This document shows positions 6,001 through 12,000 of a stretch of DNA of 64,000 nt, one piece after another (position 1 is the stretch's first letter; each line of letters starts with the position of its first letter). Origin of the DNA: Alphaproteobacteria bacterium (lineage in GTDB: Bacteria > Pseudomonadota > Alphaproteobacteria > Rs-D84); contig JAIDWS010000004.1 in assembly GCA_029059055.1 (NCBI GenBank), forward strand, positions 18,593 to 82,592, read 5' to 3'. Position numbers: made by a program.

Positions 6001-9000
6001 GATTATGGCGCCGAATAAAATCTTGGCGGCGCAGTTGTACACGGAAATGAAGTCTTTTTTCCCAAACAACCACGTTGAATATTTCGTGTCGTATTACGAT
6101 TATTATCAACCCGAAGCATATATGCCAACCACCGATACGTACATTGACAAAGACGCATCCATCAACGAACAATTGGACCGGATGCGCCACAGTGCCACGC
6201 GCGCCATGTTAGAAGAACGGGATGTCATCGTCGTGTCGTCGGTTTCGTCCATTTACGGTATGGGGTCGCCGGAACAGTATGCGGGAATGAAATTGGTCTT
6301 GAACGCGGGCGATAAAATCGGCATGCGCGACGTGATGCGGTCATTGGTCGATATTCAGTATAAACGCAACGACGTCGCATTTGAACGTGGGGATTTCCGG
6401 GTGCGGGGCGATACGTTGGATTTGTTCCCGTCGCACAGCCAAGACCGTGCGTGGAAATTATCATTCTTTGGCGATGAAATCGAAGAAATTTGGGAATTTG
6501 ATACCCTGACGGGGGCGAAGTTGCATAAACTGGACCGTATTGCGATTTATCCCAATACGCACTATGCCACGCCCATGCCGTCGATTTTACAGGCCATCGG
6601 CCAGATAAAATCGGATTTAAAGGAACGTTTGGATTATTTTCATGAAAACATGAAATATATCGAAGAACAGCGTTTGCGCGAACGCGTGAATTTCGATATT
6701 GAAATGATGGAATCGACCGGCACATGTCGCGGGATTGAAAATTATTCCCGGTATTTATCGGGGCGCAGTCCCGGTCAACCCCCGCCGACATTGTTTGAAT
6801 ATTTGCCCCGTGATGCGGTTTTGTTCATTGATGAAAGTCACGTTACCGTTCCCCAGATTTCCGCCATGTCGCGTGGTGACCGCGCGCGCAAGGAAACATT
6901 GTCGCAATATGGATTCCGTCTGCCGGCGTGCATTGACAACCGTCCGTTGACGTTTGACGAATGGGATGCGTTGCGTCCGCAAACAATCTTTGTTTCTGCG
7001 ACACCGGCCCAATGGGAATTGGAACAATCGGGTGGCATCGTTTCCGAACAGGTTATTCGTCCGACCGGTCTGTTGGACCCGGTTTGTGATATCAAACCGA
7101 CCGCGCACCAGGTGGACGATTTGCTGGATGAAGTCCGACGGGTCCAGGGACGCGTTTTGGTCACAACATTGACCAAGAAAATGGCGGAACAGTTGACCGA
7201 TTATCTGAATGAAAACGGGGTGCGGGCAAAATATCTGCACAGTGATATTGAAACACTGGAACGCATTGAATTGTTGCGTGATTTAAGATTGGGAAAATTC
7301 GATGTCTTGGTCGGCATCAACCTGCTGCGCGAAGGGTTGGACGTCCCCGAATGCGAATTGGTTGCGATTATGGACGCAGACAAAGAAGGTTTTCTGCGGT
7401 CGACGCGGTCGTTGATTCAGACCATCGGGCGCGCGGCGCGAAACGCCAACGGTCGCGTGATTTTGTATGCGGATAAAATGACCGATTCCATGAATGCGGC
7501 ACTGACTGAAACCGCGCGGCGTCGTGAAAAGCAAATGGCGTACAACGCGGCCCATAACATCACGCCCAAAACCGTGACCAAGGCCATCTTTGCCGAAGTC
7601 GGTGAAAAAGAAGAAAAAACGGATGCCAAGCGGCGCTTTGTTTATGACAAAGCGGGCGGTGTCATGGATGCCCCGTCCATCCGAAAACAGATTAAAGAAT
7701 TGACCAAAAAGATGCGCACCGCGGCCGAAAATCTGGAATTTGAACAGGCCGGCGAATACCGCGATGCCATCCGCAAACTGGAAGACGATTTATTGTTGTT
7801 GGAGTAGGGTAATGAAAACATACGTCACACAAAATCTGGATGAAACGCGCCGCTTTGCCGCCGAATTTGCCGCCACGTTACGGGCGCCGGTGTGCGTTGC
7901 ACTGCATGGGGATTTGGGTATGGGAAAATCTGAAATCGCGCGCACCATTATCCAGACATTGCGCGGGGCGTCAACCGTGGTCCCCAGTCCGACATTCACC
8001 ATTGTGCAAAATTATGATGGGATATCGCATTTTGACCTGTACCGTGTCGAAGACGCGTCGGAATTGACCGAAATTGGATTGGAACACGCCATTGAAAATG
8101 ATATCACATTGATTGAATGGCCGGAAATTGCCGCGGATATCTTGCCGGCATCAACCATTCACATCTGTATAACCGCCGCGGGTGACGGCCGGAAAATTGT
8201 TATTCAATAATTGATTGATATATACATTGGGAAATGGTGCCTGTTGAATAATCTGGCAATACGCGTATAGTGATTTTGGTTGTAACCCAGCCACGGATAC
8301 ACCCGCACGCAGTGCGCACGCCAAGGGCTTTTCTGCGGTCCCGAATCCACATCCCTGATGAATTCGGTTTTGACCGAATTCAAAAAATCCACTGACAAGA
8401 CTTTGTGTGTTGTATCTGAACAAAAATCCCGGGAATCCCCGGGATTTTTATTCTTTTTTTAACAATGATTGCACCGCCAGTGGGAAATCCGAACTGCGGG
8501 CCAGGTATGTGCCGGCAACCACCATGTCCGCACCCGCCGCCCAGCATTGTTGGGCCGTTTGTGCATTGATGCCACCGTCAACCGTTATGGTGAATTTTAA
8601 TCCGTATTTTTTGCGCGTCGCGGCCAATACGGATATCTTGTGCAGAACGGCCGGGATAAATTCTTGGCCGCCGGCGCCGGGCCGTACAGACATCACCAAC
8701 ACTTCGTCAATATCGCGCAGAACCGGTTTCAATATCGCCACCGATGATTCCGGGCCAATGGCAATCCCCGCACGGCGTCCCCGTTCGCGAATGGTTCGCA
8801 ATGCGGCGCGAACACCCGATGTGCCGGCCGATACAATGATGGTGTCGGCACCGGCGGCCACCGCGTCTGCCGCCCAGACGGCGGGTCCTTCGGTCATTAA
8901 ATGAACATGCAGATGGGCGTCTGTGTGGCCGCGGATGTATTTGATTTCATCAATGCCCCCCGTCACCCGATTGACAAAGAATCCGTCCATAACGTCGACA

Positions 9001-12000
9001 TGAATCATCGATATGCCGCCCGATTTAAACAGGCTGTACGTATGCGGATTGTGCATGTCGAATGCCAACGTGCTGGGCAATACGGGGATAAAGCGGGCGC
9101 GCTGTTTGCGCCGGCGTCGCCGGAAAATTTTGCCAATGCGCGCGCCAATCGCCCGCATGCGTGATGCGCGCGCCTGGTATGCGCGAATTCGTGGGGTCTG
9201 GGCCGCCCAGATATGCGTCGCCAATGCGCGTACCGCCGCGTCGCCATGTTCGTTTGTGACCGCGATACCAAACGCGTTTTCGATAAATTCATCAATGCTG
9301 TCAATGTCGGCGCCGCCGCCGCTTAACATAATCATGGTTGGGCGGTACTTGGTAATGGCCGGCATGACGGCGTCTTTGGCGGCGGCAACCATGTCAACCA
9401 ACATCGGCAATACAATGTCATTGACATCCGCACGGGAAAAATCATATGCCGTGTCCGCGGGCGTGAAACGGTCCATTTCACGGGTAACCGCACTGGCGAC
9501 CAATCGCTTGATTTTTTCCGCATCGTCAAAATCGATGTTTAATTTGGCGGAAATTTCCTGGGTAATATGGGTCCCCCCCATGGGAATTTTTTTGAAAAAT
9601 ACCGGTCCCCGGTCGGTCCATATGGATACAGATGTATATGCCGCACCCAAATCAATCATCAATACGGTTTTGCCGCGTGGGCGTAAAGTATTGCTGATTA
9701 AAAATGCGGAATCCATCAATCCGTCCGCCTGGATATGGGCGCGGCGCAAAAATCCATATATTTCATCCAGTCGCGTCATCGGATAAAAAATTGCCCCGAA
9801 TGCAGATATCAATTGTCGGTCTGTATGGCCCACCGGTGTCAGCATATTGCGTGCCGTCGGCGCGTCATAGCGCAACGGAATCACGTGCATTGGTACATAT
9901 CCGTCCGGCGGGGTGATTTGTGCGATTTGTGCGCGTACGTCGGCGGTGCTGATTTTATGTTCACCGGACCACTGGGTGCTTTTGGCGACCATGTCAAAGA
10001 TGGCGTCGCCGAAATCACCGGTGATGTGGGCGGAATCAAAGTGTGTACCGATTTGGCGTTCCAATTCATCAACGACGGCCTTGATTGCAAATACGGTGTC
10101 ATAATTTTCCACCGCAAACACGGCCGATTTTTCAATGCGTGCAGACCGAATGCGATGCGCAATTCCGCGCACCGCCGCGGTTCCGATATCCAAACACAGA
10201 AAAGATGAATCAAACAGGTTCAGTTCATCCCCCCCTTTATTTCACCAGGATGCGCGCACTGTCGCGCATGTCGATGGTTTTGATATCCCGGGATAAAATG
10301 GCGTGATTTTTGTCCAGTATCATCAGGGTGCTGATTGCGGCCAGCGGGTCTGTTTCCGGTAACAATACCACAATCCCCCCATGCGTATGCAAATTCCACC
10401 GCCGGTTTTCAATCCATTCCAGATAATCCAATGCGGTGGCGATGTTGTGTGCAACCTTGGTAATATCTGTGATGTCGGTCGGGACGGGGCCGCGGAATAC
10501 GACCGCGCCATCATCACGTACGGTGCCGGGGCGATTGACAATTGTGCCGTCCGCCGACAGCGGGTAAAATGTTTCCCCGTCATCCGTCCACAGTGCCACC
10601 GCCCGGTGCAATGCGACCCGCACCGACAAATTGCCGTTCGGCATGCGTCGGACCGCAGATTTTTTGACGCCCGGTACGGCCCCAATACGGGCGTTTATCG
10701 CGTCCAAATCGGCCGAATACGTGTGTGTGCCGGGTGCAACGCCAACGGCCGCCGCCAGACTGGTCAAATCCTTGTTCCCGGCGTCGGTTGTGATGGAAAT
10801 CGTCTGGATAACCGACAGTTTCCCATGCCCCAGTGATATCATGATGATGCGCGTTGCGAAATACGTCGCCAACACAATGGCCGCAACAAAGCATACCCAA
10901 AACCAGATTGTTCTTTTCATGCCCGGAATTATACCATAAAAAAGCCCCCGAGCCAAGGGGGTGAATAAATTTTTACGTTGCACGCAACAGGTATCCGCGG
11001 CGGAACATACACTTGCGATATGCGCCGACGGATTTTGATGTGGTGTTGCGCGGCACCGACAACAGACTGCGCTGGCCGACGTCGGTATATTCGTTGGATT
11101 GGAATGTAACCCACAATCCGTCCCAATTGGGCATCATACCGCTTTGGTTCGGGGCCAGCAATTTGGCCAGACGCGAACGCGGCATATATGATGGCTTTTT
11201 AATCCCCAGGCATGCCTTGTGATCACGGACAAATTGTTCTGTTGTGACCGCTTCGTTTTCCCAGTTCAAGACGGTGGCATTATCAATACTGCCCCCGTTG
11301 GGGGATGCGCACGCCGCCAAGATGAAAAATAACCCAATGTATTTAATTCTCATGAAATGTATTATAATTTAATTGCCTTGTTGGGGCAATAGTTTTTATA
11401 ATGGGGTAACACGACACAGGAAAGGCAGTCATGGCGATATCGGTTCAGAATTTTATAAAGCTGGCAAATTTTTATAATCAAACCATGATGGTGATGTCTG
11501 CGATTTGCGTGCAAAAGGGCGGCATTGCCATGGAAAATTATGTCGGGCGATTTTATGCGGCCGATACGCTGGAATACATTGTCGAATATGGCCGACGTCT
11601 GGAATCGGCCGGCGCGTTACCGGCGGATGTCGCGGCATTGCTGCAACGGTTTGCGGCGCAATTTGAACGTGTGCGTCATTTGACAACACCAACCCAAAAA
11701 CCGATACACGAAATGACGCTGGAAGAATTTGAAAAAGTTATGAATATATAGCATACTGATATAACCCAAAGGGGACGGACATGAATACAATGAAATCAAT
11801 CTGGGGCAAAATATTGGCAGCGGTATGCTGTGTTTTTTGCTTTACTTTTTTCAGCGGGTGCGCCGAATTACAGCGTGACGAAGAACCGCAATACGATGTT
11901 GTAACCGTTGTCGACCAACTGGTTATTGATGAAAATTCCGTGCCGATTTTCCCGAAAAAGGCGGCGTTGACAACCGATACCGCCCGCCGGTTTGCCATTG

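Follow-up and report, generated by a model that had tools for sequence, protein, structure and literature searches.

In the 64,000-nucleotide stretch of Alphaproteobacteria bacterium DNA analyzed here (assembly GCA_029059055.1, contig JAIDWS010000004.1; "the window" below), one minus-strand gene encodes both an actin-fold core of the type of the division protein FtsA and a complete ribulose-phosphate 3-epimerase (Rpe). Our results show that this FtsA-Rpe fusion is real and ancient, and that it is not an assembly error. We think it rather probable that the fusion is typical of the order Rs-D84 and that its product is the lineage's FtsA, carrying an active Rpe that has an added structural role.

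What is new is the domain architecture; FtsA and Rpe are each well-known families. The original prediction, made from the sequence of the window, knew of no described FtsA-Rpe fusion. This agrees with the full-text literature that we searched, in which we found no description of such a protein. The Rs-D84 genome paper does not mention FtsA, FtsZ, or the fusion (PMC12306168). Public databases already contain hundreds of the fusion proteins, under the name "ribulose-phosphate 3-epimerase" or as "hypothetical protein."

One gene for FtsA and Rpe

The minus-strand frame is open without a break from 10241 to a TAA stop codon at 8450-8448. This single open frame, with Pfam and NCBIfam matches to both families, confirms that an uninterrupted open reading frame (ORF) joins FtsA to Rpe. 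The ORF had been given as 581 codons. Its continuity stands; its length does not, because the start lies 10 codons further upstream, which makes 591 codons. The gene is built as follows.

8448..10223, minus strand: FtsA-linker-Rpe fusion gene, complete, 591 codons plus TAA
9198..10223, minus strand: FtsA core, residues 1-342, subdomains 1A, 1C, 2A, and 2B
9093..9197, minus strand: linker, residues 343-377
8451..9092, minus strand: Rpe (beta/alpha)8 barrel, residues 378-591

The earlier reading of the protein as FtsA, a basic segment, and a complete Rpe is upheld by profile searches, an AlphaFold (AF2) model, and structure searches. The model has a mean predicted local distance difference test score (pLDDT) of 85 and a predicted template modeling score (pTM) of 0.59. 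It consists of an FtsA-like core (1-342), a long helix (343-367), a disordered basic stretch (368-375), and the barrel from residue 378 onward, with no confident interdomain arrangement. All of the motifs quoted in support of that reading were found: LDIGT, IDLGA, SGGGAD, and GGTHITQEI..AEKIK in FtsA, the basic segment IGKIFRRRRRKQRARF, and HVDVMD, HVHLM, MSVRPGAGGQ, and VDGG in Rpe.

Distribution and age of the fusion

Among 5.8 billion proteins searched, more than 120 clusters of 584-596 amino acids match at a query coverage of 99-100% and an identity of 60-87%; their members originate from NCBI, ENA, JGI, and Logan assemblies. When one genome per GTDB species was scanned, the full-length protein was present in 69 genomes at 44-65% identity, and below these the matches fell abruptly to ordinary Rpe of 200-230 amino acids. 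The fusion ORF is intact in all 69 genomes (588-597 codons; one exits its contig). Gene order is near-invariant across them: lipoprotein gene, ftsQ, fusion, convergent tsaE, uvrB. Relatives were also checked for separate ftsA and rpe genes at this locus, which would imply an assembly error. Many independent assemblies of close and distant relatives contain the intact fusion and never separate genes, and there is no unfused family member among the more than 120 clusters and the 69 species genomes.

The carriers are uncultured bacteria. Their genomes are metagenome-assembled genomes (MAGs) from gut, rumen, and termites, recorded as "Candidatus Enterousia," "Alphaproteobacteria bacterium," or "Rickettsiales bacterium." The loci JBKSMY and JBKSMR belong to two MAGs assigned to Enterousia in the GTDB order Rs-D84 (PMC12306168). 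Genomes of this order measure 0.75-1.0 Mb, lack amino-acid, nucleotide, and lipid biosynthesis, and have an incomplete glycolysis; the bacteria are predicted to be rod-shaped obligate symbionts or parasites (PMC12306168).

How deep the fusion goes can be seen when only the FtsA half (345 amino acids) is searched exhaustively with HMMER against 1.84 billion representatives. This gave 18 matches below 1e-30, followed by proteins of 540-623 amino acids down to 25-31% identity, with ordinary FtsA of 400-440 amino acids appearing from an E-value of about 1e-15. All ten of ten distant long relatives (25-31% identity in the FtsA half) are FtsA plus Rpe by Pfam. P0145 is the most divergent fused protein: its FtsA half matches E. 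coli FtsA with 107 bits, its closest relatives are named FtsA, and the gene follows ftsI-ftsQ. Across 595 pairs of proteins the identities of the FtsA halves and the Rpe halves are correlated (Pearson r = 0.79), as is expected of one ancient fusion without domain swapping.

A pre-fusion arrangement with ftsA beside rpe was looked for as well. No rpe adjoins the genes of the nearest unfused FtsAs (P0289 and P0290), and P0290 is located in a normal ftsQ-ftsA-ftsZ cluster. Neither was an ftsA found near stand-alone Rpe at loci L077-L087. Hence, no intermediate stage was found. One further match, the 762-amino-acid P0147 with about 12 tandem repeats (PMHINTCRYKSPV), was discarded as spurious: residues 101-142 of the query had matched it twelve times.

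The FtsA half

The Pfam family FtsA (PF14450) matches residues 179-313 of the 581-amino-acid form with an E-value of 4e-14 and 53.4 bits (cutoff 31.8). The NCBIfam model PRK09472 scores 17.3 against a cutoff of 409. In Foldseek, the best matches of the core are the FtsA structures 1e4g, 7q6i, 3wt0, and 4a2a (target template modeling [TM] score 0.64-0.70). The top 15 PDB matches are all FtsA, from Thermotoga, Vibrio, Staphylococcus, and E. coli, at target TM scores of 0.62-0.70; PilM reaches 0.54-0.56. A sequence search of the PDB with the core likewise places T. maritima FtsA best (E-value 1.2e-08).

The modeled core has the actin/HSP70-type fold of FtsA, with subdomains 1A, 2A, and 2B and with 1C in place of 1B.

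9780..10010, minus strand: 1C (SHS2-like) subdomain, about residues 72-148, from the secondary structure of the model

The alignment with T. maritima FtsA covers the 1C region at residues 63-165. Pfam SHS2_FTSA matches six of ten divergent fused relatives and does not match the window protein. The nucleotide motifs of the window core are phosphate-1 D12/G14, phosphate-2 D191/G193, and adenosine G302-G304. In a 38-sequence alignment of the family D12, G14, G302, and G303 never vary, and the conservation of D191 and G193 is 90% or higher. These motifs are lost in a few deep branches only (P0134, P0141, P0142, and P0151). In P0141, P0142, and P0151 (the last at L090 170-1912) the phosphate-1 aspartate is replaced by tyrosine and the phosphate-2 aspartate by histidine or asparagine; their Rpe residues are intact. 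Judged by these replacements, FtsA may be a pseudo-ATPase in that branch.

The linker

The linker comprises the helix at 343-367, which includes the amphipathic segment MRAIGARIGKIFRR, and the polybasic RRRRRKQRAR; its net charge is +15. Every family member has a linker of 30-37 amino acids with a net charge between +8 and +15. The amphipathic segments of the family linkers have a mean hydrophobic moment of 0.68, compared with 0.62 for the membrane-targeting helix of E. coli FtsA, and the linker of P0145, RWVQIKNWFEKHL, is strongly similar to that helix, SWIKRLNSWLRKEF. Both the model and these family properties agree with the earlier proposal that the basic segment stands at the position of the FtsA membrane-targeting helix. 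The linker would then lie on the membrane's inner face.

The Rpe half

Pfam PF00834 (Ribul_P_3_epim) matches residues 374-564 of the 581-amino-acid form with an E-value of 2e-45 and 155 bits (cutoff 21.1), and the NCBIfam Rpe subfamily NF004076 scores 186 bits (cutoff 165). The Rpe equivalog TIGR01163 reaches 163.5 and stays under its cutoff of 212.6. In Foldseek, the barrel superimposes on Streptococcus pyogenes Rpe (2FLI) with a target TM score of 0.91, a root-mean-square deviation of 1.9 Å, and 36% identity. In the alignment to residues 5-214 of 2FLI, H408, D410, H441, and D549 correspond to H34, D36, H67, and D176. We take these four to be the metal-ligand and acid/base residues of Rpe.

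The metal and catalytic residues are invariant in the main family (the same 38 sequences), as are P515, G516, G519, Q520, G550, G551, and G571. The phosphate loops PGAGGQ, DGG, and AGT are present in the window protein. This complement of residues suggests that the fused barrel is an active epimerase and probably the source of the cell's Rpe activity. A metabolic reconstruction of Rs-D84 contains the nonoxidative pentose-phosphate pathway except transaldolase; the Rpe gene is not specified (PMC12306168).

A methionine within the barrel, Met390 (window 9054-9056, minus strand), is encoded by ATG in 71 of 71 sequences. It lies in the family motif PSTLCFDM, at a position where stand-alone Rpe has phenylalanine or tyrosine (E. 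coli PSILSADF, 2FLI PSILAADY). Initiation there would remove strand beta-1.

Selection and catalytically degenerate branches

Both halves of the fusion are under strong purifying selection. Across 22 pairs of 80-98% identical genes, the ratio of nonsynonymous to synonymous substitutions (dN/dS; Nei-Gojobori method) is 0.07 in the FtsA half and 0.05 in the Rpe half; the linker has a value of 0.24.

Two lineages have lost catalytic residues of Rpe. In P0134, the FtsA motifs are all replaced (LDIG by LSIA, IDLG by VNLE, GGG by GSN), and so are those of Rpe (HVD by YTT, PGAGGQ by SGAEIE, VDGG by VCGD). In P0132, the FtsA motifs are intact, and H408, H441, D549, and the phosphate loop of Rpe are lost. 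Both proteins align colinearly with the window protein over their full length and share its synteny. In a neighbor-joining tree rooted on P0145 they nest among clades with intact residues; hence, the loss of catalytic residues is secondary.

P0134 has a relative, P0287, with 75% identity; the genes of both have a GC content of 20%. They are located at L091/L092 10001-11770 and L093 5001-6773, and their gene order is that of the window: lolCDE-like genes, 107-amino-acid ORF, lipoprotein gene, ftsQ, fusion, tsaE, uvrB, asmA, aspS. Between P0134 and P0287, dN/dS is 0.36 in the FtsA-like half and 0.20 in the Rpe-like half, with dS unreliable at this GC content. The Rpe-like half is the better conserved one (81% amino-acid identity).

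Because this AT-rich sublineage is nested among intact clades, has lost the catalytic residues, and yet keeps a constrained full-length domain, the Rpe domain probably has a noncatalytic structural role in the fusion.

Translation start

The proteins of all relatives start with MNLFDSSFLCLDIGT, and their DNA aligns colinearly with the window at this point. The first codon is CTG in the window, TTG in seven loci, and ATG in the 69 species representatives; TTG is found in the nearest, 87%-identical relatives. Codons 2-11 of the window gene differ from those of relatives by synonymous changes only. Since relatives have a homologous ATG or TTG in the place of the CTG, the gene extends over 8448..10223 and encodes 591 amino acids.

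10221..10223, minus strand: inferred start codon CTG, aligned with Met1 of the family's N-terminus
10229..10238, minus strand: Shine-Dalgarno-like AAAGGGGGGG, ending 5 nucleotides before the CTG, from sequence reading and alignment with relatives
10220..10228, minus strand: mini-ORF ATG-AAC-TGA, out of frame, its TGA overlapping the CTG; specific to the window and missing in relatives

The stop codon of ftsQ lies 13 nucleotides upstream of the CTG. The alignment thus points to a weak CTG (10223-10221) behind a strong Shine-Dalgarno sequence as the place where translation starts. The TTG at 10193, which had been proposed as the start, is the codon for Leu11. It does not hold as a start, given that relatives have CTT or TTA there and that the codons upstream are conserved with synonymous changes only. 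A 5-nucleotide duplication of TGAAC that displaced an ATG start was considered too and is ruled out by the colinear alignment. The out-of-frame ATG-AAC-TGA beside a strong ribosome binding site had been noticed correctly. It directly follows the 7-G Shine-Dalgarno run and might be a termination-reinitiation aid for the weak CTG, or a coincidence.

Operon and gene neighborhood

The genes and signals around the fusion are the following.

11361..11389, minus strand: promoter-like site TTGCCC-17-TATAAT (10/12, a consensus match only), upstream of the lipoprotein-ftsQ-fusion operon
10973..11353, minus strand: predicted lipoprotein gene, 126 amino acids, lipobox LAAC, first gene of the operon, overlapping the ftsQ start by 11 nucleotides
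10237..10983, minus strand: ftsQ, 248 amino acids, Pfam FtsQ_DivIB_C (PF03799), E-value 1.7e-08
8422..8449, no strand assigned: perfect 12-bp hairpin with a 4-nucleotide loop and AAAAA/TTTTT flanks, beginning one base after the fusion stop
7740..8210, plus strand: tsaE, convergent, Pfam TsaE, E-value 1.5e-32, position conserved in relatives

Wherever the locus was examined, in the window as in relatives, ftsQ is directly upstream of the fusion. The lipoprotein gene has no Pfam family. Relative to the fusion start it is kept at about -1120 nucleotides in most of the 69 species, and its place upstream of ftsQ is the same in the 20%-GC clade; it may encode an unrecognised divisome component. The hairpin looks like a bidirectional intrinsic terminator that would serve both the fusion gene and tsaE. 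As listed, the tsaE ORF (156 amino acids, TTG start) exceeds the 132-133 amino acids of relatives by about 23 codons and runs into the end of uvrB (5816-7807); translation probably begins further downstream.

Profile searches of the window bear out three earlier remarks on this locus: tsaE is convergent, ftsZ is not the next gene after ftsQ-ftsA, and no ddl or mur gene precedes them. The 64-kb window contains no ftsZ, tkt, rpi, or tal. A second rpe or a second FtsA-like gene is present neither in the window nor in 95 related loci, and just past the window end, as seen in a near-identical assembly, there is no ftsZ, second ftsA, or second rpe.

The other genes of the window are housekeeping genes, among them aspS, asmA, uvrB, lolCDE-like genes, ruvABC, recA, secDF, mutL, ftsK, mltA, and glycosyltransferases. 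Genes for FtsK (59452-61731), MltA (32077-33195), an S41 C-terminal-processing protease (57158-58666), and an LpoA/LppC-like lipoprotein (19720-21390, minus strand) are present, and hence the lineage keeps peptidoglycan-remodelling and late-division functions although its division and cell wall (dcw) genes are dispersed.

Two plus-strand ORFs, of 106 amino acids (11431-11751) and 450 amino acids (11781-13133), have no confident Pfam family. They lie just upstream of genes for a lolC/E-like permease (13147-14403) and a lolD-like ABC ATPase (14423-15133), and the block they form with the lol-like genes has been kept throughout the order, the 20%-GC clade included. Six more ORFs, of 184-429 amino acids, are without a Pfam match at E ≤ 1e-5 (123-701, 15167-15754, 15782-16336, 17179-18171, 48560-49285, and 61798-63087); the one of 429 amino acids has an identical copy in NCBI assembly GCA_029058995.1. 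A database look-up of the GTG-started ORF at 63149..63910 gave no record. Finally, a plus-strand ORF of 644 amino acids with a TTG start (45787-47721) has a weak partial match to a ribonucleotide-reductase barrel (39.6 bits). It may encode a divergent ribonucleotide reductase, in a genome said to lack nucleotide biosynthesis.

Interpretation

Most likely, the fusion gene, co-transcribed with ftsQ, provides the lineage with its FtsA, the actin-like protein that anchors the divisome to the membrane. Its core would bind ATP, polymerize, and recruit division proteins as in other bacteria, with the linker placed on the inner membrane face. The Rpe barrel, tethered about 10 residues from the linker helix, would work as an epimerase. 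Strand beta-1 of a triosephosphate isomerase (TIM) barrel enters at the face opposite the catalytic face, so the tether need not block the active site. Rpe typically forms dimers or hexamers, and the added noncatalytic role could, for example, consist in clustering FtsA through homo-oligomerisation of Rpe.

Several observations weigh against this reading. NCBIfam ftsA (TIGR01174) gives the FtsA half 69.7 bits against a cutoff of 175.85, with model positions 34-342 aligned, and identity to any unfused FtsA does not exceed 29%. The amphipathicity of the linker is only modestly above that of composition-matched shuffles (mean z about 1). A search for ftsZ in the 64-kb window, and up to 10 kb from the fusion at the 95 related loci (1.6 Mb), found none; the searches covered loci only, and the genomes may have FtsZ, a canonical second ftsA, or another rpe elsewhere. 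As an initiator CTG is very weak, and it could also stem from a T-to-C sequencing error. The structural role is argued from one sublineage and a single independent dN/dS pair, the same pair for which dS is unreliable. The model of P0134 keeps both folds at a pLDDT of 85, from an input alignment dominated by intact members. Finally, gene fusions can persist merely through the rarity of fission.

The last point leads to a neutral explanation, a "Rosetta-stone" fusion, in which genome compaction joined FtsA and Rpe, the halves act independently, and the joint gene persists because fission is rare. We regard this as rather unlikely, although several observations fit it: at 0.75-1.0 Mb the genomes are densely packed, each half retains its own catalytic motifs and is constrained separately, a pTM of 0.59 leaves AlphaFold without a confident arrangement of the two domains, and no metabolic link between ribulose 5-phosphate or xylulose 5-phosphate and division is evident in the window. 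It accounts poorly for three things. A full-length Rpe, the better conserved half, outlasts the loss of catalytic residues in P0134/P0287 and in P0132, the linker keeps its 30-37 amino acids throughout a very deep divergence, and among more than 120 clusters and 69 species there is no return to separate genes.

It is also possible to go further than the favored reading, and here we are tentative. The Rpe barrel may have been co-opted as an integral module of the divisome anchor, possibly an oligomerization hub, that is essential even as a pseudoenzyme and would define a new type of FtsA anchor in bacteria with a dismantled dcw cluster. With the same reserve, one could suppose that this module is essential also where, in one branch, the FtsA ATPase too is a pseudoenzyme.

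That the N-terminal half is instead a divergent FtsA/PilM-like paralogue, for example, a membrane scaffold for Rpe, with a canonical ftsA-ftsZ elsewhere, seems to us improbable. The score under the curated FtsA threshold and the low identity to unfused FtsA would fit such a paralogue, as would an ftsZ that is never adjacent and the missing phosphate-1/2 aspartates of P0141, P0142, P0151, and P0134. The gene, however, always stands directly after ftsQ (after ftsI-ftsQ in P0145), structure and sequence searches place FtsA above PilM and MreB, and relatives have SHS2_FTSA matches. Moreover, 1.6 Mb of related loci hold no second FtsA-like gene, and genomes below 1 Mb seldom retain paralogues.

Least probable of all, in our view, is an artefact (a missed stop, a frameshift, or a chimeric assembly) or separate production of the halves from an internal start or by processing. 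One could point to the noncanonical start annotated in the window and to the database entries P0121, P0122, and P0124, which are truncated or frameshifted and had at first sight the look of unfused close relatives. P0122 and P0124 turn out to end at contig edges, and P0121 has one late frameshift; the same intact ORF recurs in independent Logan, ENA, JGI, and NCBI assemblies. A conserved internal start for a free Rpe was not found in 71 sequences: the candidate, codon 382, is ATG, GTG, or TTG in just 47 of the 71, and a Shine-Dalgarno-like sequence lies upstream of it in one. At the level of DNA, both the artefact and the separate products are effectively excluded.

FtsA ranks among the most studied proteins of bacterial division and, to our knowledge, its C-terminal membrane helix has in every description been where the polypeptide ends. 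Rs-D84 puts a pentose-phosphate enzyme after the putative counterpart of this helix and has kept it there over a very deep divergence. If the Rpe domain is structural, the fusion is a natural experiment in rewiring FtsA assembly at the membrane, and it would also tie central metabolism physically and permanently to the divisome. There is a practical side too. Since the protein is annotated only as an epimerase or as hypothetical, automated reconstructions may miss FtsA, and they may credit lineages with an Rpe that is probably inactive there.

Comparison with known systems

The fusion shares with canonical FtsA (T. maritima 1E4G/4A2A, E. coli 7Q6D, Vibrio maritimus 7Q6I) the actin/HSP70 fold with 1C replacing 1B, the phosphate-1, phosphate-2, and adenosine motifs, the place directly after ftsQ, and, by prediction, an amphipathic basic helix after the core. 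It differs in having a core of about 340 instead of about 385 amino acids, at an identity of 29% or less and below the NCBIfam FtsA cutoffs. Its helix lies inside the protein instead of at the C-terminus, with an enzyme domain of 214 amino acids behind it, and ftsZ is not the next gene. PilM, the actin-like ATPase of type IV pili, has an FtsA-like fold with a 1C-type insertion as well and appears among the secondary profile matches. All PilM scores, however, are below those of FtsA, and the fusion follows ftsQ and has no pilN, pilO, pilP, or pilQ neighbors.

In comparison with stand-alone Rpe (S. pyogenes 2FLI, Synechocystis 1TQJ), the fused domain keeps the full barrel and the catalytic and phosphate-loop residues. 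Unlike stand-alone Rpe, it has no start codon of its own, and its strand beta-1 comes about 10 residues after a membrane-type helix. Its motifs differ also: HLHVHLMTE where stand-alone enzymes have D-x-HLM, and PSTLCFDM with the invariant methionine. In the P0134/P0287 and P0132 lineages the fused domain is catalytically degenerate.

Any regulatory coupling of Rpe to division is putative. In concept the fusion resembles UgtP of B. subtilis, OpgH of E. coli, and GdhZ and KidO of Caulobacter, separate metabolic enzymes that modulate division: in each case, an enzyme of central metabolism is physically associated with the division machinery. Those enzymes, however, are free proteins that bind FtsZ conditionally, whereas in Rs-D84 Rpe is covalently and permanently part of the FtsA polypeptide.

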